A DNA stretch of 20,586 nt from a bacterium (GCA_031441465.1 JANOEP010000069.1:1-20586); one strand, 5' to 3'. Counted from the stretch's first letter, positions 57-20,537 are shown. Translations and numbers: made by a program. Notes: generated by a model not told the origin, from the letters alone.

Positions 57-140
57 AATCGCACCTCCTGTGGAAGACCTCGGGAGAAGTCTACAACAGG
101 GGCGCTATATAGTATAGTTAATCTTGGGACAGGACACTAG
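1..140 (-). mobile_element. Left end of an IS630-family insertion sequence (continues beyond the window edge)
   Basis: The minus strand reads CTAG-TGTCCTGTCCCAAGATTAACTATA..., i.e. a CTAG/TA target (137-140) followed by a terminal sequence of the kind seen in IS630 elements. An AGGAGG RBS and a transposase-like N-terminus follow. Hand count is 76/140 G+C (54%) versus 94/120 (78%) at 241-360. The second end is not in the window. Confidence 0.75.
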
Positions 141-147
141 CGGGCAG

Positions 148-176
148 TTGCCCGGTCCGCCGTCGCGGGGCATTAT
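148..176 (+). promoter_or_regulatory. Candidate sigma70-type promoter for the deaminase gene
   Basis: TTGCCC (148-153), 17 nt spacer, CATTAT (171-176), 38 nt upstream of the ATG at 215. The -35 overlaps the palindrome CGGGCA-GT-TGCCCG (141-154). Confidence 0.4.
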
Positions 177-214
177 AGGGGATGTGGACCGCAATCCCAA
201 CCACGGAGCTGACC

Positions 215-1525
215 ATGCGCGACCCGGACCTCTTCCTGCTCGAACACGCCGACCCCCTGGTCACGATGGACCCCGCCCGCCGCGTCCTGGACGACGGCTG
301 GGTGGCGGCGCGCGACGGGCTGATCGTCGGGGTGGGCGCGGGTCCGGCGCCCGCGCAGATCGACGGCGAACCCTGCGCGCGCTTCCGGCGGCTCGACGCG
401 CGGGGCCGGGTCGTGCTGCCGGGCCTGGTCAACACGCACCACCACCTCTACCAGACGCGCACGCGGGCCTGGCCCGGCGCCGTCGACGCGGAGCTGTTCC
501 CCTGGCTCGAGACGCTCTACCCGGTCTGGGCCGGCCTCTCGGACGAGGACGTCCACCGCGGCGCGCTGGTCGGCTGCCGCGAGCTGCTGCGCTCGGGCTG
601 CACCACGACCACCGACCACCACTACCTGTTCCCGCGCGACGCCTCGCCGGAGCTGATCGACATCACGGTGGCGGCGGCCCGCGAGGCGGGCATCCGCTTC
701 CACCCCACGCGCGGCAGCATGTCGCGCTCGCGGAAGGACGGCGGCCTGCCGCCGGACTCCGTGGTGCAGGACCACGACACGATCCTGGCCGACAGCGAAC
801 GGGTCATCCGGCTGCACCACGACCCCGCCCCGGACGCGATGACCCGCATCGCGCTCGCCCCCTGCTCGCCGTTCTCGGTCACCCCGGAGCTGATGCGCGA
901 CACGGCCGCGCTGGCCCGCCGCTTCGGCGTCCGCCTGCACACGCACCTGTCCGAGACGCGCGACGAGAACGACTACTGCACGCGCGTCTACGGGATGCGG
1001 CCGGTGGACCTGCTGGAGGACTGCGGCTGGCTGGCCGACGACGTCTGGCTGGCGCACGGCATCTGGTTCGACGACGCGGAGATCGCGCGGCTGGGGCGCG
1101 CGGGCGTCGCGATCGCCCACTGCCCCACCTCGAACATGCGCCTGGGCTCGGGCATCTGCCGCGTGCGCGACCTGCGGGCCGCGGGCTGCCCCGTCGGCCT
1201 GGCGGTGGACGGGTCGGCGAGCAACGACTCCTCCCACCTGCTGGCCGAGCTGCGCCAGTGCTTGCTGCTGCACCGCGTCCTGGGCGGCGCCGGCGGGATG
1301 ACGGTCGGGGAAGTGCTGGAGATGGCGACCCTGGGCGGCGCCGCCTGCCTCGGGCGCGACGACGTGGGTTCGCTCGCGCCGGGCAAGGCCTGCGACCTGG
1401 CGCTCTTCGACCTCGGGGACCTGGCCTACGACCGCGTGGGCGACCGCGTGGCCGCTCTGCTGCTCTGCCACCCCCGCGACGCCGCGGCGGTCGTGGTCGG
1501 CGGTCGTGAGGTCGCGCTCGGCTGA
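215..1525 (+). CDS. 8-oxoguanine deaminase-like metal-dependent amidohydrolase (AtzB/8-OGD subgroup), 436 aa
   Basis: Motifs PGLVNTHHHLYQT, GCTTTTDHHY, PCSPFS (characteristic of 8-oxoguanine deaminases), HTHLSET, AHCPTSNMRLGSG and VDGSASND. Start moved to ATG 215 because of GGAG at 205-208. Confidence 0.85.
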   Translation: MRDPDLFLLEHADPLVTMDPARRVLDDGWVAARDGLIVGVGAGPAPAQIDGEPCARFRRLDARGRVVLPGLVNTHHHLYQTRTRAWPGAVDAELFPWLETLYPVWAGLSDEDVHRGALVGCRELLRSGCTTTTDHHYLFPRDASPELIDITVAAAREAGIRFHPTRGSMSRSRKDGGLPPDSVVQDHDTILADSERVIRLHHDPAPDAMTRIALAPCSPFSVTPELMRDTAALARRFGVRLHTHLSETRDENDYCTRVYGMRPVDLLEDCGWLADDVWLAHGIWFDDAEIARLGRAGVAIAHCPTSNMRLGSGICRVRDLRAAGCPVGLAVDGSASNDSSHLLAELRQCLLLHRVLGGAGGMTVGEVLEMATLGGAACLGRDDVGSLAPGKACDLALFDLGDLAYDRVGDRVAALLLCHPRDAAAVVVGGREVALG

Positions 1526-12480: not shown

Positions 12481-13505
12481 CCCGCAACCGTCCCCTGCTG
12501 ATCCTGGCCCTGACCGTCGTAATGCTGCTGGCCTTCAGCGTCGTGCAGCGGGTGCTGCACCGGCGCGCCGTGACGTCCCCGACCACCGCCACCGTGGTGG
12601 CGGCGGACTTCGAACCGGCGGACATCAACCGCGTCACGGTCGGCACCGCAGCCGACTCGGTGGCGGTCGTGCTCGAGCGGCTGGGCGAGGGCTGGGTCGC
12701 CCGCACCGCCTGGGGCCATCCCGTCGACCCGCGCAAGCTCCAGGAGCTGCTGGCGGCCCTGGACAGCCTGCAGGGGGACTTCCGCTCCGACGAGCCGGCG
12801 ATCCTGGAAGACTACGGTCTGGGCCCGCAGTCGGATCCCGTGAAGGTGACCCTGTTCGGCAAGGACTGGCAGCCGGTCTGCGCGCTGCTGCTGGGCAAGC
12901 GCGCCGACGACGGCTCGGGCGTCTTCGTGCGCGCGCCGGGCAGCCACGCGGTCTACCTGGTCAGGACCGAGGTGCGGGGCAAGCTCGGGCTGTGGGCCCC
13001 GGAGGCGAAGCCGGAGACGCGCACGTTCCTGGACCTGTCGGTGTTCAAGACCGACGCCGCCGGCATCCGCCAGATCGCCCTGCACGACGGGGACAAGACC
13101 CTGGTCATGGAGAAGGTCCTGACGACCGCCGGATCCGGCGACGGGTCCGCGCCGCCGCCCCAGGACTGGGAGTGGACGCTGACCGCACCCTCGCGCCGCG
13201 CCCTGGCGAAGACGAAGGTCGACGGCGTGATGAACGCGCTGACCGGCATCCAGGCCGCCGACATCGCCGACCCCGGAGTCGGCATGGAGAAGTACGGCCT
13301 GTGGAAGGCCGCACGCCGCGTCGAGGTGACGCTGGCGGACGGTTCGACCTTCGAACTGCGCGTCGGCGACGCGCAGCCGGCCACGGGGGGCGCCCAGCCG
13401 GGGCGCTACTGCATGACGTCGCGCGACACCAGGATCTGGGTGATCCGCGAGAACAAGCTCGACCAGATCTTCAAGAAGCTCGCCGACCTGACGCCGGACG
13501 CCTGA
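12477..13505 (+). CDS. DUF4340 domain membrane-anchored protein, 342 aa
   Basis: N-terminal TM anchor and two internal repeats of the pattern 'W......P.D..K...LL.AL..L.......YGL...V.....L.LG'. Position after GldG is typical. ATGA overlap with a GGAGG RBS. Confidence 0.8.
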   Translation: MTRNRPLLILALTVVMLLAFSVVQRVLHRRAVTSPTTATVVAADFEPADINRVTVGTAADSVAVVLERLGEGWVARTAWGHPVDPRKLQELLAALDSLQGDFRSDEPAILEDYGLGPQSDPVKVTLFGKDWQPVCALLLGKRADDGSGVFVRAPGSHAVYLVRTEVRGKLGLWAPEAKPETRTFLDLSVFKTDAAGIRQIALHDGDKTLVMEKVLTTAGSGDGSAPPPQDWEWTLTAPSRRALAKTKVDGVMNALTGIQAADIADPGVGMEKYGLWKAARRVEVTLADGSTFELRVGDAQPATGGAQPGRYCMTSRDTRIWVIRENKLDQIFKKLADLTPDA

Positions 13506-13526: not shown

Positions 13527-13558
13527 AACGCCCGGGCGGCCCTCTCCCGGGCGTTTTT
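13527..13558 (+). terminator. Rho-independent terminator of the ABC operon
   Basis: Perfect 10-bp stem AACGCCCGGG (13527-13536) / CCCGGGCGTT (13546-13555), 9-nt loop, T run 13554-13558, 21 nt after the DUF4340 stop. Confidence 0.75.
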
Positions 13559-13642
13559 GCTTGCAGATTCAGGGGCCGGGGATGATCCTGAACCTGTACC
13601 TGACACGATGTCCCCCACGCGCCCAGCACCGGAGGCCAGGAC

Positions 13643-15010
13643 TTGAAGCAGAGCGTAACAAGCGCCCCCGGGGTGCTGCTGACCAACGCGAACGTGCTGG
13701 ACTACCTGCCGCCGCAGATGAACGCGGCGCCCGACCCGCGCGTCGAGACCGCCGACCTGCGCCTCGCGGGCGGCCGCATCGTCGAGCGCGGACGCGGTCT
13801 CGCGCCGCACGACGGCGAAGAAGTCCGCGACCTGGACGGCCGCACGGTCATGCCGGGACTGATCAACGCCCACCACCACCTCTACTCCACGCTGGCGCCG
13901 GGCATGCCGCCGCCGGCGAACACGCCGCGCAGCTTCCAGGACGTGCTGACGGAGATCTGGTGGAAGCTGGACCGCGCGCTGGATCCCGAAGCCATCCGGA
14001 TCAGCGCGGTGTCGGGCGCCTGGGACGCGCTGCGCTGCGGCACGACGATGATCTTCGACCACCACAGCAGCCTGACCTCGGTCGGCGGCTCGCTCGACCT
14101 GGTGGAAGAGGGCCTGCGCGACGCCGGCTTGCGCGGGTGCCTCTGCTACGAGGTCACCGACCGCGGCGGGCCCGGCAGCCGCGACACCTGCCTGGAGGAG
14201 ACTCGCCGCTACCTGCAGAAGACCGCCGCGCCCGTCGACGGCGTTCCCGTCGTCGGCGTTCCTTGGTTCAAGGGCCTGGTCGGCGCCCACGCCGGCTTCA
14301 CGCTGGAGGACGCCACGCTCGACAGCCTGGCGGCGCTCTGCTCCGAATTCGATACCGGCGTGCACATCCACCTGGCCGAAGGCGCGACGGACCGCGAGAT
14401 CTGCCATGACCGCGGCTGGCCCGACCCGCTGGTGCGGCTGGACCGGCACGGCCTGATCCGCCCCCGCAGCCTGCTGGCCCACGGCGTGGACCTCACCCCG
14501 CTGGACCTGCAGACGATCGAGGAGAAGGGCGCCTGGCTGGTGCACAACGGCCGCTCGAACATGAACAACGGCGTCGGGCGCGCGCCGGTCGACCGCTTCC
14601 CCCCGCGCAGTTGCCTGGGCACCGACGGCCTGGACGGCAACATGTTCGGCGAGCTGCGCACGACGTTCTACCGCGGCAACGAGACCGGCCGCGGCCCGTT
14701 GGGCTTCAAGGGCGCCGAGCGCTTCTGGATCGGCGGCTACCAGCTCGCCCGCGAGATCTTCGGCGAACCCTTCGGTTCGCTGGACGCCGGCGCGCCCGCC
14801 GACTTCTTGATCGGCTGCGAGGACCAGAAGCAGCCGCTGCACCAGGGGAATTGGCTCGGCTTGCTGCTGTTCGGCATGCAGCCCCGCGTGATCCAGGAAG
14901 TCTGGGTCGACGGCGCGCCGCGCTACCGCCGCGGCGATCCGGCGCCGTACGACGGCAAAGCCTGCCGCGCCGCCGCCAAGCGTATCTGGGACCGCATGTC
15001 CAACCTCTGA
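13643..15010 (+). CDS. ssnA: SsnA-like amidohydrolase (purine ring-opening / 'selenium metabolism-linked' family), 455 aa
   Basis: MPGLINAHHHLYSTLA, L.EIWWKLD, GTT.IFDHHSS, CYEVTDR, GAHAGFTL, HIHLAEG, SNMNNGVG and LGTDG are SsnA-family signatures. TTG start with GGAGG at 13631-13635. Adjacent to ygeY/ygeW-like genes. Confidence 0.8.
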   Translation: MKQSVTSAPGVLLTNANVLDYLPPQMNAAPDPRVETADLRLAGGRIVERGRGLAPHDGEEVRDLDGRTVMPGLINAHHHLYSTLAPGMPPPANTPRSFQDVLTEIWWKLDRALDPEAIRISAVSGAWDALRCGTTMIFDHHSSLTSVGGSLDLVEEGLRDAGLRGCLCYEVTDRGGPGSRDTCLEETRRYLQKTAAPVDGVPVVGVPWFKGLVGAHAGFTLEDATLDSLAALCSEFDTGVHIHLAEGATDREICHDRGWPDPLVRLDRHGLIRPRSLLAHGVDLTPLDLQTIEEKGAWLVHNGRSNMNNGVGRAPVDRFPPRSCLGTDGLDGNMFGELRTTFYRGNETGRGPLGFKGAERFWIGGYQLAREIFGEPFGSLDAGAPADFLIGCEDQKQPLHQGNWLGLLLFGMQPRVIQEVWVDGAPRYRRGDPAPYDGKACRAAAKRIWDRMSNL

Positions 15011-15075
15011 TCCACGACACCGGCTGGTCGCCCCCCACAACGGGCGCGCCCGGCCGGGGCGTATCCGGAGCCGCG

Positions 15076-16287
15076 ATGACCACGAAGAACCCCCTCGACG
15101 CCGCCCGCGCCCTCGAAGCACCCATGATCGCCTTCCTGCGCGACATCGTCGCCATCCCGAGCCTTTCGGGACAGGAGGAACGGGTCGTGCGCCGCGTCGC
15201 GCAGGAGATGGAACGCGTCGGCTTCGACGAGGTGCGCCTCGACGGCCTCGGCAACGTGCTCGGTCGCATCGGCGACGGTCCGCGCGTGGTGGCCTTCGAC
15301 GCCCACCTCGACACCGTCGATGTGAGCGATCCCGCCCAGTGGCTCTGCGACCCCTTCCGGGGCAAGCTGGAAGACGGCCGCGTCTACGGCCGCGGGTCCG
15401 TCGACCAGAAGGCCGGCATGGCCGGCATGGTCTACGCCGGCAAGCTGATGAAGGAACTCGGGCTGCTCGATGGCTGCCAGGTGTGGATGGTCGGCTCGGT
15501 GATGGAAGAGGATTGCGACGGCCTCTGCTGGCACTACATCCTGCAGGAGCAGCTGCTGCGGCCCGAGGTCGTCGTCTCGACCGAGCCCACCGGCCTGACC
15601 CTGACCCGCGGCCAGCGCGGGCGCATGGAGATCCGGGTCACCTCGCACGGCGTGTCGTGCCACGGCTCGGCACCGGAGCGCGGGGTCAACGCCGTCTACA
15701 AACTGGCGCCGGCCTGCGCGGCGATCGAGCGGCTGAACGACCGGTTGGGACACGACGACTTCCTGGGCAAGGGCACCTGCACCGTCAGCATGTTCCAGAG
15801 CCTTTCGCCGAGCCTGTGCGCGGTGCCCGACAAGGCCGAACTGCACATCGACCGCCGCCTGACCGCGGGCGAGACCCGCGACGGCGCCCTGCGCGAGGTG
15901 CGCGAGGCCCTGGCCGCGGCCGGCGTCGAAGCCGAGGTGCGGCTGCTGACCTACGAGGTCCCCGCCTGGACCGGCCTGGTCTACCCCATGGAGAAGTACT
16001 ACCCGACGTGGCTGATGCCCGCGGACCACCCCGCGGTGCGCGCGGGCGTCGTCGCGCACGCGGGCGTGTTCGGCGCGCCGCCCGTGGTCTCGCGCTGGAC
16101 CTTCAGCACCAACGGCGTGGCCATCAACGGGCTGCACGGGGTGCCCTGCGTCGGCTTCGGACCGGGCCAGGAAGCCCTGGCCCACGCCCCCAACGAGTAC
16201 GTCCCGGTGGACGACGTCGTGCGGGCCTGCGCCTTCTACACGGCGTTCCCGCAATCCTTCCTGAACATCGACCGAGGTGCGACATGA
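15076..16287 (+). CDS. ygeY: YgeY-family M20 metallo-amidohydrolase, 403 aa
   Basis: FDAHLDTV, GRGSVDQKAG, MEEDCDGLCWHYI, STEPT, RGQRGRMEI, SCHGSAPERGVNA, FLGKGT, SPSLCAV, WTFSTNGV and AHAPNE match YgeY closely. GGAG upstream of ATG 15076. Confidence 0.9.
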   Translation: MTTKNPLDAARALEAPMIAFLRDIVAIPSLSGQEERVVRRVAQEMERVGFDEVRLDGLGNVLGRIGDGPRVVAFDAHLDTVDVSDPAQWLCDPFRGKLEDGRVYGRGSVDQKAGMAGMVYAGKLMKELGLLDGCQVWMVGSVMEEDCDGLCWHYILQEQLLRPEVVVSTEPTGLTLTRGQRGRMEIRVTSHGVSCHGSAPERGVNAVYKLAPACAAIERLNDRLGHDDFLGKGTCTVSMFQSLSPSLCAVPDKAELHIDRRLTAGETRDGALREVREALAAAGVEAEVRLLTYEVPAWTGLVYPMEKYYPTWLMPADHPAVRAGVVAHAGVFGAPPVVSRWTFSTNGVAINGLHGVPCVGFGPGQEALAHAPNEYVPVDDVVRACAFYTAFPQSFLNIDRGAT

Positions 16288-17261
16288 GCAAGATCCTGCA
16301 GGGCAAGCATTTCATCGACACCGAGGACTGGGCCGACGACGAGCTGGAACTGATGCTCGCGACCGCCGGCGACCTCAAGCGCAAGTTCTACCGCGACGAG
16401 CCGCACGCGCTGCTGCGCGACCGCACCCTGTTCGCGCTGCTCTTCGAGCAGAGCACCCGCACCCGCAACTCCATGGAAGCGGGCATGACCCAGCTCGGCG
16501 GCCACTGCCACGTGCTGACCCCCGACAAGCTGCAACTCAGCCACGGCGAGACGGTCATGGATACCGCGCGCGTGCTGGGCCGCATGGGCCACGGCATCGC
16601 CATCCGCAACTGCGATTTCGGCGTGGGCAACAAGTTCATGCGCGAGATCGCCGGCATCTCGCGCGTGCCCCTGATCAACCTGCAGTGCGACGTCTACCAC
16701 CCCTGCCAGGCGGCGGCCGACATCATGACCGTGCGCGAGAAGTTCCGCGGCGAGACGCGGGGCCGCAAGATCGTCGTGAGCTGGACCTACGCCCCGAGCT
16801 ACGTGCGCCCCATCTCGGTGCCCCAGTCCGAGATCCTGATCATGACGCGCATGGGACTGGACGTGACGCTGGCCCACCCGCCCGAGTTCAAGCTGATGCC
16901 GGACATCCTCGAGCGCGCCCGCGCGAACGCGCGGCGCAGCGGCGGCAAGTTCGAGATCGTCGACGACATGGACGCTGGTTTCGAGGGCGCCCACGTGGTC
17001 TACCCCAAGAGCTGGGGCTGCCTGGTGCACGAGCCCGACCGCGCGGCCGCCGTCCAGCACATCGAGAAGTACCCCGGCTGGATCTGCGACGAGCGCCGCA
17101 TGAAGCTGGCCGCGCCCGACGCGATCTACATGCACCCGCTGCCGGCCTCGCGCGGCCAAGAGGTCACCGACGCGGTGATCGACGGCCCGCAGTCGGTGGT
17201 GTGGGACCAGGCCGAGAACCGCCTGCACACGGCCAAGGCCATCATGGCCCTCACCATGTAG
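16284..17261 (+). CDS. YgeW-related (knotted-type) carbamoyltransferase, 325 aa
   Basis: Carbamoyl-phosphate motifs STRT, HPCQ and HPLP. YgeW-like features HGET..TA, INLQCD, SWTYAPSYVRPISVPQ, LAHP and VYPKSW. No ornithine-binding SMG loop. ATGA overlap with ygeY; GAGG RBS. Confidence 0.85.
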   Translation: MSKILQGKHFIDTEDWADDELELMLATAGDLKRKFYRDEPHALLRDRTLFALLFEQSTRTRNSMEAGMTQLGGHCHVLTPDKLQLSHGETVMDTARVLGRMGHGIAIRNCDFGVGNKFMREIAGISRVPLINLQCDVYHPCQAAADIMTVREKFRGETRGRKIVVSWTYAPSYVRPISVPQSEILIMTRMGLDVTLAHPPEFKLMPDILERARANARRSGGKFEIVDDMDAGFEGAHVVYPKSWGCLVHEPDRAAAVQHIEKYPGWICDERRMKLAAPDAIYMHPLPASRGQEVTDAVIDGPQSVVWDQAENRLHTAKAIMALTM

Positions 17262-17277
17262 ACGCCGGGAGAGCGCG

Positions 17278-18519
17278 ATGCAGCTGCCGCAGGTCGGGAC
17301 CAATCCGCACTGGACGGGGTACGCCTGCGGGTTGTGCGGCAGGGCGCACCCGACGGACCACCGCGGCTTCGTGTGCGCCGGCTGCGGCGACGAGGGCATC
17401 CTCGACGCGACCTACGACTACGCGGCGATCCGCGCCGGCCTGCCCGACGGCGACCCCTTTCCGGCGCGGGGCCGGCCGGACCTCTGGCGCTACGCCGCGC
17501 TGCTGCCGCTGCAACCGGTGGCGCCCCACGCCTGCTGGTCGCTCGGCGACACGCCGCTGCACGCCCCGCACCGCCTGCGCGAACACCTCGGCCTGCCCCA
17601 CCTGCTGCTGAAGGACGACACCGCGCTGCCGTCGGCCAGTCTGAAGGACCGCGCCACGGCCATGGCGATGGCCGACTGCGCCCGCCTGGGCGTCGCGCAC
17701 GTGGCCGCCGCCTCGACGGGCAACGCCGCCGCCAGCCTCGCGGTGCTGGCGGCGCGCGCGGGCGTGCGCACGACGATCTTCGTGCCGGCCGCGGCGCCGC
17801 GGGCCAAGCTGGCCCAGCTCGAGCTGCACGGCGCCGAGGTCCGCCGCATCGACGGCACCTACGACGAGGCCTTCGACCTGTCCGTCCAGGAAACGCGGGC
17901 GCACGGTTGGTACTCCCGCAACTGCGCCTACAACCCGCTGCTGGTGGAGGGCAAGAAGACCTGCGCCCTGGAGATCGCCCACGCCCTGGATTTCCGGGCG
18001 CCCGACGCGGTGTTCGTGCCGACGGGCGACGGCTGCATCGTGTCGTCGACCGCCAAGGCCTTCCACGAGCTGGCGGAGGTCGGTCGCCTGGACCGCGTGC
18101 CGGCCGTGTTCGGCGTGCAGGCCGCGGGCGCCGCGCCGCTGTGCCGCGCCTGGCGGGAAGCCGGCGCGCGGGCCGCCGCGCTCACGCCGCGCGAGGTGCT
18201 GGCCGCCGTCGCGCCGGTCACGCCCGCGACCATCGCCGATTCGATCAGCGTGGGCGTCCCGCGCAACCGACTGAAGGCGTGGAAATACGTCGGGCGCAGC
18301 GGGGGCGGCTTCCTCGCCGTCGAGGACGAGGCGATCCGCGAGGCCATCCGCCTGCTGGCCCGACTCGCCGGCGTCTGGGCCGAACCGTCGGGGGCGGCGG
18401 GCTTCGCCGGCCTGTTGCTGGCCCGCGCGCAGGGGCTGATCGGGCCGCACGACAAGACCGTGGTGCTGGTCACGGGGCACGGGCTGAAGGATCCGCTGGC
18501 GGGGGTCCGGACGGATTAG
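17278..18519 (+). CDS. Threonine-synthase-like fold-type II PLP enzyme with N-terminal CxxC...CxxC, 413 aa
   Basis: CGLC...CAGC, LWRY, LGDTPL, PLP lysine in PSASLKDR, ASTGNAA, VEGKKT, VPTGDG, EPSGAAG and TGHGLKD. Starts 16 nt after the carbamoyltransferase; GGGAG RBS. Confidence 0.85.
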   Translation: MQLPQVGTNPHWTGYACGLCGRAHPTDHRGFVCAGCGDEGILDATYDYAAIRAGLPDGDPFPARGRPDLWRYAALLPLQPVAPHACWSLGDTPLHAPHRLREHLGLPHLLLKDDTALPSASLKDRATAMAMADCARLGVAHVAAASTGNAAASLAVLAARAGVRTTIFVPAAAPRAKLAQLELHGAEVRRIDGTYDEAFDLSVQETRAHGWYSRNCAYNPLLVEGKKTCALEIAHALDFRAPDAVFVPTGDGCIVSSTAKAFHELAEVGRLDRVPAVFGVQAAGAAPLCRAWREAGARAAALTPREVLAAVAPVTPATIADSISVGVPRNRLKAWKYVGRSGGGFLAVEDEAIREAIRLLARLAGVWAEPSGAAGFAGLLLARAQGLIGPHDKTVVLVTGHGLKDPLAGVRTD

Positions 18520-18564: not shown

Positions 18565-19911
18565 TCAGCCCTGGCGCCGTTTATTCCGTTCGATCAAACC
18601 CACCACCACGAACGACAAGACGACGACCCCGGCGATCCCGATGACGAAGGGCCGCGCCGGTGCGCCGCTTCGCCGCTGGAACGGCTCGCCGAACCGCGCA
18701 TTGGGCCGGAAGTAAGCCTCCCCGTGCCGGTAGTCGAGGATCGTGTTGAAGCGCGCCAGCACCTCCAGGCACAGCACGCCGCCGGGCGGCGCCTGGTTGC
18801 CGGCTGAGGGCAGCTCCATATGGACCGGCACGTTCGGCAGGGAGAACCCCGCGATCACGAGTTCCGGCACCAGCACGACCTCGTTGCGGATCACCGCGCT
18901 GCCCACCCCGCGCGAGGCGCTCTTCCCGAGCACCCGCATCGCGCCGGGCAGACCGTGGGCCGCCGAGAAAGCCTGGTTGACGATCATGGTCCCCGTACCG
19001 GCGGTGTCCAGGACGAACAACCCGGCCTCCCTCTTCTCCCCGGCGACCAGGACGGTCTCCACCGCCGTGAGCGGGCCCGCGTACGGCATCGCGGTCTTCG
19101 CATATCCGGCCGACTTCGCGGGCAACTCGTCGTGGACGATCATGATCATGCGGTCGTAATCGATTTCGACCACCTTGCCCAGGAAAAGCGGCCAGCCGAC
19201 GATCCCGTCGGCCCGGTCGGCCTGCCTCTCCACCGCGATGAGCGGTTCGTGGTCCCACCGCAGCCCCGCGATGTCGAGCCGGTTGTCGCTGGCGGTCCGC
19301 CGTTCCGTCGAGCCGCCGGTCCCGGCGTTGATCGTCGTGCCGTCGAGCCGCAGTTCGGCTCCCTTGTCCAACGCGGACGGGTACAGGGCACAGCTTTCCG
19401 CCCCGGTGTCGAAGATGAGGTTCAGCGGCCCGGAACCGTTGATCGTGCCGACGACGTTCAGTTTGCCATTCTTGATCGAGATCGGGATGGTGTCGGGGCC
19501 GGCCGTGCGCGGGCCGAGCCGTTCGTATGCCTGCATCATCGTCGAGATTCGCGTGCGGCAGGAGTCCCGGCCCCCGAGCAGGACCGTGAAGTCGTAGGTG
19601 CGGCCGGGCAGGACGTCGAAGGAGAGCGAGTCGACGTCCGAGATGAACGTCACACGCTTCGCGGCGGTCGTCCTCAGCGCGGCGTAGACGTCGAGCGCGG
19701 CCGCGGGATCGACGACCCAGACGCCCTTCTGGAGACGGTCGCCGTCGCGGACGTCCACGGTCCCGGAATTCGCCGGGAGCACCGGCGGCGCCGCCCGGGC
19801 CGCGACGGCCGCCGTCACCAGGAACAACACCGGCAACCAGACGAACCGGCCATCCGCACGCCAGTGTCGAAGTGGCCACTGGGTCCGAGCTGCGGTGTTG
19901 CGCCATCGCAT
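18565..19911 (-). CDS. Retropepsin-like aspartic protease with two protease lobes and C-terminal membrane anchor, about 448 aa
   Basis: Lobe 1 has IFDTGA...DGIVG and lobe 2 has VLDTAG...GGVLC. Hydrophobic signal segment FVWLPVLFLVTAAVAARA; C-terminal FVIGIAGVVVLSFVVVGLI-ERNKRR. ATG 19911 preceded by GAGGGGG. Confidence 0.8.
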   Translation of the reverse strand: MRWRNTAARTQWPLRHWRADGRFVWLPVLFLVTAAVAARAAPPVLPANSGTVDVRDGDRLQKGVWVVDPAAALDVYAALRTTAAKRVTFISDVDSLSFDVLPGRTYDFTVLLGGRDSCRTRISTMMQAYERLGPRTAGPDTIPISIKNGKLNVVGTINGSGPLNLIFDTGAESCALYPSALDKGAELRLDGTTINAGTGGSTERRTASDNRLDIAGLRWDHEPLIAVERQADRADGIVGWPLFLGKVVEIDYDRMIMIVHDELPAKSAGYAKTAMPYAGPLTAVETVLVAGEKREAGLFVLDTAGTGTMIVNQAFSAAHGLPGAMRVLGKSASRGVGSAVIRNEVVLVPELVIAGFSLPNVPVHMELPSAGNQAPPGGVLCLEVLARFNTILDYRHGEAYFRPNARFGEPFQRRSGAPARPFVIGIAGVVVLSFVVVGLIERNKRRQG

Positions 19912-19950
19912 CAGGATACCCCCTCGAAGGAAAGACCACGGAACAGCGAG

Positions 19951-19978
19951 CCCGGCGAGGGCGTCAGCCTCCGCCGGG
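19951..19978 (-). other. Intergenic GC-rich stem-loop between the DUF1697 gene and the aspartic protease gene
   Basis: Minus-strand RNA CCCGGCGGAGGC-UGAC-GCCCUCGCCGGG forms a 12-position stem with one G-U pair and one A-C mismatch, 10 nt after the DUF1697 stop. No adjacent U tract. Confidence 0.5.
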
Positions 19979-19988
19979 GCGCGACGAT

Positions 19989-20537
19989 TCAAGCAGTCCG
20001 AGCGCCGCCGTCGGCAGCTGCCTGGATTTTGATTGCGGTGGCCCAGTTGCGGGTCGTGGCGGCCTCTCCCGTGAGGCGCGTGAAGACCTTGACGAGCTCG
20101 CTGTCGGCGACTCCGCCCGCGCACCAAAGGTAAGCCGCCAGCTTCCCGAGGGCGAAGGCCTCGGGAGACCACGATCGCGCCAGCAGCGGCCCAGCCGCTT
20201 GCAAGGCATCCGGATCCTGCAAGAAGGCCACCAGGTGCCGCGATGGGTCGTCTACCATGTCGCGCAGGGGATTCTCCCCGAGGATGGCCGCGAGATCCGC
20301 CGCACCGATCACGACCACCGGCACCGAGAAGCCGAACTCACGTTCGATCGCCGACCGGATGGCCCGCGCGTGCCCGGCGGCGTCCGGACTCTCCGTCGTG
20401 AAGACGACGTTGCCGCTGTTGAGCAGCGTGCTGACGTCGGCGTAGCCGAGGCTTTCGACCAGGCGCCTCAGGTCCGCCATGGCGACGCGCTTGGCGCGGC
20501 CGACGTTGACGCCGCGCAGCAGGGCGACGCACCTCAT
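19989..20537 (-). CDS. DUF1697 family protein, 182 aa
   Basis: Signature VALLRGVNVG...MADLR...LGY.DV.TLLNSGNVVF, ENP and TTRNWAT..K. Start ATG 20537 (GTG at 20540 or 20549 also possible). Confidence 0.9.
   Translation of the reverse strand: MRCVALLRGVNVGRAKRVAMADLRRLVESLGYADVSTLLNSGNVVFTTESPDAAGHARAIRSAIEREFGFSVPVVVIGAADLAAILGENPLRDMVDDPSRHLVAFLQDPDALQAAGPLLARSWSPEAFALGKLAAYLWCAGGVADSELVKVFTRLTGEAATTRNWATAIKIQAAADGGARTA

Follow-up and report, generated by a model that had tools for sequence, protein, structure and literature searches.

What is the function of an operon that joins a YgeY-type hydrolase, an enzyme of anaerobic urate breakdown, to a relative of threonine synthase (ThrC)? The question is raised by positions 13643 to 18519 of a 20,586-bp stretch of DNA (GCA_031441465.1, JANOEP010000069.1:1-20586), which we call the window. 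The window is the entire contig C69 of an uncultured high-GC sediment bacterium, whose genome measures 3.49 Mb in 74 contigs, is 96.8% complete and has 71% G+C. We believe that the four genes found there probably make up the lower half of the reductive urate pathway in a variant form. In it, an enzyme derived from ThrC and dependent on pyridoxal 5'-phosphate (PLP) would fill the role of diaminopropionate ammonia-lyase (DpaL, YgeX in E. coli). The genes are the following.

13643..15010, + strand: gene 1, SsnA-like amidohydrolase, 455 aa, TTG start, best NCBIfam match SsnA
15076..16287, + strand: gene 2, YgeY-family M20 hydrolase, 403 aa, above the curated cut-off
16284..17261, + strand: gene 3, short YgeW-like carbamoyltransferase, 325 aa, with shared YgeW motifs
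17278..18519, + strand: gene 4, ThrC-like fold-type II PLP enzyme, 413 aa, with an N-terminal Cys4 zinc ribbon

The initial annotation had described four co-oriented genes here, and this is what we find: all are on the plus strand with gaps of 65, -4 and 16 nt, the start of gene 3 overlapping the YgeY stop by 4 nt. It had taken them for a stripped-down purine/urate operon whose last step is done by an enzyme from another fold-type II branch, and the sequence comparisons described below support that reading.

The four proteins and their families

Naming with Pfam and NCBIfam gave Amidohydro_1/SsnA-like, YgeY, OTCace and PALP/ThrC-like for genes 1 to 4. Gene 4 matches Pfam PALP with 228.6 bits and stays under the cut-offs of both ThrC models (NF006050, 253.5 bits vs 303; TIGR00260, 149.5 vs 167.1). 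It reaches only about 45.5-50 bits against the DpaL model NF006058, where the cut-off is 276, and is the best match to that model in the genome. With the ThrC encoded elsewhere in the genome it shares 34% identity, and the solved structures nearest to it are the threonine synthases 2d1f (E = 9e-47), 2zsj and 1uim. The earlier claim of a threonine-synthase-fold enzyme in place of ygeX/dpaL thus agrees with the PALP/ThrC-like match, which belongs to a different fold-type II branch than DpaL.

Like the zinc-ribbon threonine synthases (NF006050 / PRK08197), gene 4 has the fold, the Cys4 ribbon, the PLP lysine (K123 in SLKDR, invariant in its clade) and the STGN and EGKKT motifs. Unlike them, it is found in a purine-catabolism setting and not in one of threonine synthesis. 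Its resemblance to DpaL/YgeX (NF006058) is of another kind: both are fold-type II PLP enzymes, they occupy the same slot in sister clusters and their distributions are complementary, but they come from different branches of the fold.

The clade of gene 4 also departs from threonine synthases at conserved positions. Where ThrCs have NPxRxEG, gene 4 reads NPLLVEG; the Arg is missing in 28 of 28 clade members, whereas the genome's true ThrC and both of the solved ThrCs in our alignment have it. Where solved ThrCs show a GNAGN loop, clade members have GDG(C/N/T/S)x, the Asp being invariant, and set against the zinc-ribbon type the loop has changed to GDGC(I/V); GWYxRN and ADSISVGxPRN are motifs specific to the clade. 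In the Thermus ThrC, the Arg of NPxRxEG and the first Asn of GNAGN are ligands of the substrate phosphate, a role for which a literature search yielded no source. If that role is right, the clade may have lost the phosphate site, which would fit an amine leaving group without proving it. The protein atlas labels clusters of look-alikes as 'threonine synthase' only.

Gene 2 is the only one of the four above its curated cut-offs. It was called ygeY, and it is a full member of the YgeY family, passing both models (NF009555, 524.8 bits vs 321; TIGR03526, 517.9 vs 321.5) and sharing 55% identity over 390 aa with E. coli YgeY. For gene 1 the name ssnA holds in part. SsnA is its top-scoring family, but it does not reach the curated cut-offs (NF005540, 321.6 bits vs 444; TIGR03314, 286.6 vs 455.5), and its identity to E. 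coli SsnA is 31.6% over 450 aa.

Gene 3 passes none of the models that we compared, whether for ornithine carbamoyltransferase (OTC; NF001986, 257.7 bits vs 306; TIGR00658, 250 vs 280.85), AOTCase (234 vs 288) or YgeW (NF005538, 204.1 vs 453; TIGR03316, 196 vs 500). Its translation contains STRTR and HPCQ. We take STRTR and HPxQ to be the carbamoyl-phosphate-binding motifs of the transcarbamylase superfamily, so they indicate the superfamily and not OTC. In an alignment, QxSHGE, LQCDxxHPxQ, WxYxPSYxxPxSVPQ and VYPKSW are common to gene 3, E. coli YgeW (34% identical to gene 3) and the YgeW homologues of relatives, and the genome's own OTC has none of these four. Gene 3 does not have the three insertions and the C-terminal extension of YgeW, and its final 50 residues are OTC-like. 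Because it keeps the YgeW motifs and is missing the YgeW insertions and tail, we call it a short YgeW-like carbamoyltransferase, neither OTC nor canonical YgeW. The earlier label 'ygeW-like' stands as far as the motifs go, but this is a short form and not YgeW proper.

Alternation with DpaL and gene neighbourhoods

A profile search of the whole genome found no DpaL/YgeX above the curated cut-off of 276 bits, and tblastn of E. coli YgeX against the genome gave no match of 60 bits or more. A true ThrC is encoded elsewhere, on contig C47 (NF006050, 557 bits vs 303), as is a true OTC on C10 (360.5 bits vs 281), and an ATCase adjoins dihydroorotase on C27.

We built a profile of the ThrC-like protein from 28 clade members and scored it on 101 genomes of the window's phylum. 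Clade members scored 362-588 bits, true ThrCs at most 325 and the genome's true ThrC 288.7; the threshold was set in this gap after scoring. We also counted in the clade one match truncated by a contig end, in G076, which covers only positions 1-181 with 223 bits and lies about 1.1 kb from YgeY. In the phylum sample DpaL was above its cut-off in 18 genomes and YgeY in 47. For comparison we scored 120 genomes of the class Clostridia, with one genome unscored. The YgeY-positive genomes were distributed as follows.

Window's phylum (101 genomes), 47 YgeY-positive: 39 ThrC-like only, 6 DpaL only, 1 both, 1 neither
Clostridia class (120 scored), 9 YgeY-positive: 2 ThrC-like only, 7 DpaL only, 0 both, 0 neither
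Both samples, 56 YgeY-positive: 41 ThrC-like only, 13 DpaL only, 1 both, 1 neither

The mutual exclusivity with dpaL that the initial annotation proposed to test is nearly, but not fully, what we see among the 56 genomes. The genome with neither enzyme (G043) has a YgeY barely above the cut-off. DpaL was above the cut-off in none of the 10 further ThrC-like genomes that we reached through loci. Since the genomes are related to one another, the counts should be read as a pattern, not as a test in the statistical sense.

In the DpaL-only Clostridia, the distance between DpaL and YgeY is about 0.1-2.5 kb. The six DpaL-only genomes of the phylum all belong to the window's own family (genera g13, g15, g18 and g21), so sister genera carry one or the other lower module. 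Around DpaL, all six have YgeW (62-71% identical to that of E. coli), YgfK and XDH; an SsnA-like gene was found at three of these loci, YgeY at four, HyuA at two and the 488-aa CysK-like PLP enzyme described below at two, with several of the loci cut by contig ends. The other eleven DpaL-positive genomes of the phylum are without YgeY, and in the six of these whose DpaL surroundings were inspected there were no pathway neighbours. We consider the likeliest reading to be that the ThrC-like enzyme is a non-homologous replacement of DpaL, and the short carbamoyltransferase has most likely displaced YgeW in this variant.

The neighbourhoods of the ThrC-like clade were surveyed by scanning one genome per species with the ThrC-like protein, which yielded 175 confirmed relatives. 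We kept 79 loci, 24 of them close (57-96% protein identity) and 55 distant (35-47%), and assigned neighbour genes within 9 kb of the ThrC-like gene by coverage clustering and by tblastn with known proteins. The order SsnA-like/YgeY/OTC-like/ThrC-like is kept in 19 of the 24 close loci, which tells us that the arrangement is not due to chance; in four others the locus is interrupted by the end of a contig or flank. Gene 1 heads the operon in 20/25 close loci.

The distant loci are labelled Clostridia, Chloroflexota, Thermotogota, KSB1, Cryosericota/Caldisericota, Bipolaricaulota, Cloacimonadota, Armatimonadota and others. Their neighbour genes were counted as follows.

488-aa CysK-like PLP enzyme (PALP488): 29/55 distant loci
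OTC-like carbamoyltransferase: 26/55
Carbamate kinase: 20/55
XDH iron-sulfur (Fe-S) subunit: 18/55
XDH FAD subunit: 17/55
XDH Mo subunit: 15/55
D-hydantoinase: 12/55
SsnA-like: 10/55
YgeY: 10/55
UacX-like DHO_dh-Fer4 reductase: 9/55

At least one core purine-pathway neighbour is present in 44 of the 55, and at least two in 37. The expected linkage of the ThrC-like clade to ygeY/ygeW-type genes is thus found far beyond its own lineage. Complete clusters exist, such as L071, from a metagenome-assembled genome of Clostridiales, with the order XDH / YgeY / OTC-like / PALP488 / hydantoinase / SsnA / UacX-like / ThrC-like / XDH; the cluster in G151 resembles it. In two other families of the window's phylum, the OTC-like and ThrC-like pair either adjoins XDH genes (G011, G025) or stands beside carbamate kinase and an SsnA-like gene (G012). 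In L049 and L086 the ThrC-like gene is accompanied by a canonical YgeW (62-66% identical to that of E. coli), so the carbamoyltransferase and PLP swaps are usually, not always, coupled.

PALP488, the most frequent of these neighbours, has 63% mean column identity across phyla. The window genome has a copy standing alone on another contig (C26:41716-43131; L101:8696-10153, minus strand) that is 58% identical to a distant homologue. We considered whether PALP488, acting by itself or as a necessary partner to the ThrC-like enzyme, could be the general substitute for DpaL, and rejected this. It occurs in 37 of the 47 YgeY-positive phylum genomes, but it is also found in DpaL-type clusters (L105, L106) and is missing from seven of the eight genomes of family f2 that are positive for both YgeY and the ThrC-like gene. 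It would seem to accompany the pathway often in its environmental versions, as an accessory that the ThrC-like enzyme does not require.

Several loci had further features. In five related genomes (L030, L035, L039, L041 and L042), ygeY is separated from the carbamoyltransferase gene by an inserted gene whose product, of about 215 aa, has a lamin-tail domain (LTD). Some distant clusters (L046, L061, L062, L064, L085, L097 and similar loci) have two different carbamoyltransferase genes and carbamate kinase, with no YgeY within the locus; in these, both ureido groups could go by phosphorolysis. In Chloroflexota-type loci (for example L065, L069, L087 and L098) a gene for a family-2 glycosyltransferase often stands between the ThrC-like and CysK-like genes; 16 distant loci hold this gene, and in many of them it has that position.

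The candidate pathway and its alternatives

The initial annotation placed hyuA, ygfK, xdh and carbamate kinase outside the window. As the window is a whole contig, this is so, and we found homologues of HyuA, YgfK, XdhD and carbamate kinase on other contigs. An XDH operon with FAD, Fe-S and Mo subunits lies on C16; its Mo subunit is 41% identical to E. coli XdhD and scores 634 against TIGR03313, vs 1102 for the cut-off. A HyuA-like hydantoinase is on C67 (335.6 bits vs a cut-off of 393). Carbamate kinase is in two pieces, at the starts of C29 and C52 (255 and 195 bits vs 358). A YgfK-like FMN domain is at the start of C27 (C27:3-1370, minus strand; 335 bits vs 835), and a 2x[4Fe-4S] tail of a YgfK-like gene is at the start of C64 (about 100-575, plus strand). 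Because this tail is there and the two contig ends have a short stretch of translation in common, the YgfK-like gene is probably whole and was split by the assembly.

We considered whether this gene was a full-length YgfK cut by the contig end, and rejected this, as the relatives show an intact short form: the gene is complete, at 582-661 aa, in 5/5 well-assembled relatives, and both of the relatives that we scanned for domains have the 2x[4Fe-4S] domain behind the FMN domain. In all five the YgfK model is matched only at positions 4-399, meaning that the central FAD/NAD(P)H module is missing. A gene for a HAD hydrolase lies upstream of the short YgfK-like gene and is kept in at least one relative. 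The genome also has selD (C25:35277-36200) with one in-frame TGA, so the SelD encoded there probably contains selenocysteine. When yqeB and yqeC of E. coli were compared with the genome by tblastn, there was no match of 60 bits or more. On C27:4579-8255 (L014) this bacterial genome has GatE-like and GatD-like genes, for an archaeal-type Glu-tRNA(Gln) amidotransferase.

With these genes, the pathway that we propose would run as follows. The XdhD-like three-subunit molybdenum enzyme and the short ferredoxin-type YgfK, both on other contigs, would reduce urate to a dihydro-dioxopurine. The SsnA-like amidohydrolase would open the pyrimidine ring of the reduced purine, and the HyuA-like hydantoinase, also on another contig, would open the hydantoin ring to give 2,3-diureidopropionate. 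The short YgeW-like carbamoyltransferase would then remove one ureido group by phosphorolysis, producing carbamoyl phosphate, from which the genome's carbamate kinase could make ATP. YgeY would hydrolyze the other ureido group to leave 2,3-diaminopropionate, and the ThrC-like PLP enzyme would split this by alpha,beta-elimination into pyruvate and ammonia.

A number of observations weigh against this pathway. Its genes are scattered over at least six contigs and not clustered, three of the four operon proteins are under the curated cut-offs of the families compared, and so are the HyuA-like, YgfK-like and XdhD-like genes. The exclusivity with DpaL is not absolute: G080 has both enzymes, its DpaL standing alone without pathway neighbours, and in the locus L080 the 9 kb around the ThrC-like gene include a homologue of DpaL (51% identical to E. 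coli YgeX). As relatedness makes the genomes non-independent, the complementarity within the family may reflect only a few replacement events. The ThrC-like gene has no pathway neighbour in the close locus L043, where it is alone, and 6/55 distant loci are without any pathway neighbour even when the CysK-like enzyme is counted. PALP488 is a frequent companion of both cluster types, and this pathway does not account for it. Finally, the ThrC-like gene is the best thrC match in 5/5 well-assembled relatives, where no other gene passes the thrC cut-off, so in those five, where paralogy gives no argument, it could in principle be the only threonine synthase. However, three of five DpaL-type relatives are without any thrC match and the other two have a canonical thrC; absence of ThrC is therefore common in the family, whichever lower module is present.

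In family f1, several genomes (among G075, G079, G100, G018, G036 and G024) are nearly complete and have no threonine synthase above the curated cut-off. This suggests either that threonine auxotrophy is common in the family or that an unrecognised type of ThrC exists.

The operon could also be a urate-type lower module whose substrate is some other ureido or N-heterocyclic compound, for example another purine, a pyrimidine or a hydantoin derivative, and which has a different PLP enzyme and carbamoyltransferase for that reason. The SsnA-like, carbamoyltransferase and PLP genes all fall under urate-family cut-offs, and in the window's lineage the operon is not beside xdh, ygfK or hyuA. The short carbamoyltransferase and the ThrC-like enzyme usually switch together against YgeW and DpaL, and Chloroflexota-type loci pair both with a nucleoside-type Bmp ABC transporter and have no XDH. 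However, we think a different substrate unlikely, because the ThrC-like gene also occurs with canonical YgeW (L049, L086) and inside complete XDH/UacX/SsnA/hydantoinase/YgeY clusters (L071, G151). In addition, YgeY is here a full family member, and the complementary distribution of the ThrC-like gene and DpaL in genomes with YgeY suggests that they share an end substrate. We think it quite unlikely that the pathway is that of urate and the ThrC-like enzyme performs some other PLP reaction, perhaps with PALP488. It might, for example, make serine or cysteine from diaminopropionate by beta-replacement, carry out an elimination on a ureido-amino acid, or act as a racemase. Both threonine synthases and cysteine synthases catalyze replacements and are not plain lyases, and PALP488 is within reach of the ThrC-like gene in more than half of the distant loci and present on C26 in the window genome. 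But its occurrence in DpaL-type clusters and its absence from most f2 genomes argue that the ThrC-like enzyme does not depend on it, and the near-exclusive alternation with DpaL is most simply explained if the two catalyze the same reaction.

It is highly improbable that these are ordinary biosynthetic genes (an ornithine carbamoyltransferase, a threonine synthase and an ArgE/DapE deacylase) that came together by accident. Across phyla, the clade is found near genes for XDH and carbamate kinase, and it alternates with DpaL; the Arg of NPxRxEG is missing from all 28 clade members, and gene 3 has the motifs of YgeW and not those of the genome's OTC. The best curated names of genes 3 and 4 are indeed ornithine carbamoyltransferase and threonine synthase, the second being also the label of the atlas, and the five relatives without another thrC would fit; yet both genes are under every curated cut-off, and the true OTC (360.5 bits) and the true ThrC (557 bits) are encoded elsewhere. 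A more speculative version, to which we give little credence, is that the short carbamoyltransferase and the ThrC-like enzyme make up a distinct lower branch. It would handle another regio- or stereo-isomer of the ureido compound and, instead of simple deamination to pyruvate, end in a ThrC-style replacement such as that of diaminopropionate to serine, by which the C3 skeleton would be kept in an amino acid. This branch, rather than that of E. coli, would be the commoner form in environmental anaerobes. We continue with the urate pathway in which the ThrC-like enzyme does the work of DpaL as the reading that we prefer.

Flanks, known systems and meaning

The operon is flanked by the following features.

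13527..13558, + strand: terminator-like hairpin and U run, closing the upstream ABC/GldG/DUF4340 unit
13631..13635, + strand: Shine-Dalgarno-like GGAGG, 7 nt 5' of the gene 1 TTG, read from the sequence
18565..20172, - strand: aspartyl-protease-like gene (Pfam Asp_protease_2, 45.3 bits), outside the system

The convergent downstream gene of the initial annotation is this minus-strand aspartyl-protease-like gene, which begins 45 nt past the last stop of the operon. The upstream unit (ABC-ATPase / ABC-2 permease / GldG-like / DUF4340) is conserved but unrelated and ends at 13505. The terminator claimed at its end fares less well. By reading and folding there is a hairpin 22 nt past the stop of the DUF4340 gene, with a 10-bp stem, 8 G-C pairs in its core and a run of 5 U that starts within the 3' arm. 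However, the hairpin is missing from the output of a consensus terminator scan, and the 65-nt region around it folds no better than shuffled sequence (z -0.70). For these two reasons we call the element terminator-like only.

The metatranscriptome libraries of two studies contain contigs that are 90-99% identical to the window and together span all four genes, with run X16 bridging junctions 1/2 and 2/3 and run X17 bridging junction 3/4. They offer weak support for the operon: they are relatives' sequence, DNA carry-over is possible, strand, level and transcription cannot be read from them, and uncovered bins are uninformative. On the same contig, 12 kb upstream of the operon, is a gene for 8-oxoguanine deaminase (window 182-1525, plus strand; NF006055, 617 bits vs a cut-off of 532). 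This enzyme produces urate from 8-oxoguanine, and its product could feed the urate pathway.

The anaerobic uric-acid pathway (by way of 2,8-dioxopurine, 'yanthine') was solved biochemically in gut bacteria in 2025 (PMC12507026; 10.1101/2025.04.24.650524; commentary PMC12990295), so only the enzyme substitutions described here are new. The E. coli cluster that they describe is ygeW-ygeX-ygeY-hyuA-yqeA / ygfK-ssnA-ygfM-xdhD (PMC12507026; 10.1101/2025.04.24.650524). Like it, our operon has an SsnA-type amidohydrolase, a YgeY (55% identical), a YgeW-type carbamoyltransferase and a terminal fold-type II PLP enzyme, and the window genome has XdhD-, YgfK-, HyuA- and YqeA-like genes as well. Unlike E. 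coli, the window genome has no YgeX/DpaL and a ThrC-like enzyme instead, its carbamoyltransferase of 325 aa has neither the insertions nor the tail of YgeW, its YgfK is without the central FAD/NAD(P)H module, its XDH is in three separate subunits, and its pathway genes are spread over several contigs and not gathered in one island.

There is precedent for such substitutions. In the uricolytic cluster of the C. difficile type, with its UacX and UacY variants, non-homologous enzymes fill steps of the pathway, as Li et al. describe: an FMN and Fe-S reductase is without the FAD/NAD(P)H module, and the ureido-cleaving enzyme has been replaced (PMC12507026). That cluster, as presented there, keeps YgeX, whereas in ours the PLP step would be the one replaced and the phosphorolytic, ATP-yielding carbamoyltransferase the one kept. 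The term 'threonine synthase' does not occur in the main text of Li et al. or Liu et al. (PMC12507026; 10.1101/2025.04.24.650524), and a full-text literature search returned no paper that links a threonine-synthase-like gene to ygeY or to XDH/carbamate-kinase clusters. The neighbourhood network of Li et al. marked 'YgeX' by Pfam PF00291 (PMC12507026). Any PALP protein matches PF00291, so ThrC-like neighbours would count as YgeX in that network.

The urate pathway is in use to find and to engineer microbes that degrade urate. If the ThrC-like enzyme does the job of YgeX, homology screens that require both YgeX and YgeW would miss many degraders; in our phylum sample the ThrC-like form is found in 39 of the 47 YgeY-positive genomes and the DpaL form in 6. 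Two widespread families that are now labelled 'threonine synthase' and 'ornithine carbamoyltransferase' would then need renaming. The metabolic reconstruction of uncultured bacteria would be affected too, for example through false calls of threonine or arginine prototrophy. For the family itself, this would be a clean case of a threonine-synthase scaffold recruited to catabolism, with an amine as its substrate rather than a phosphate ester.

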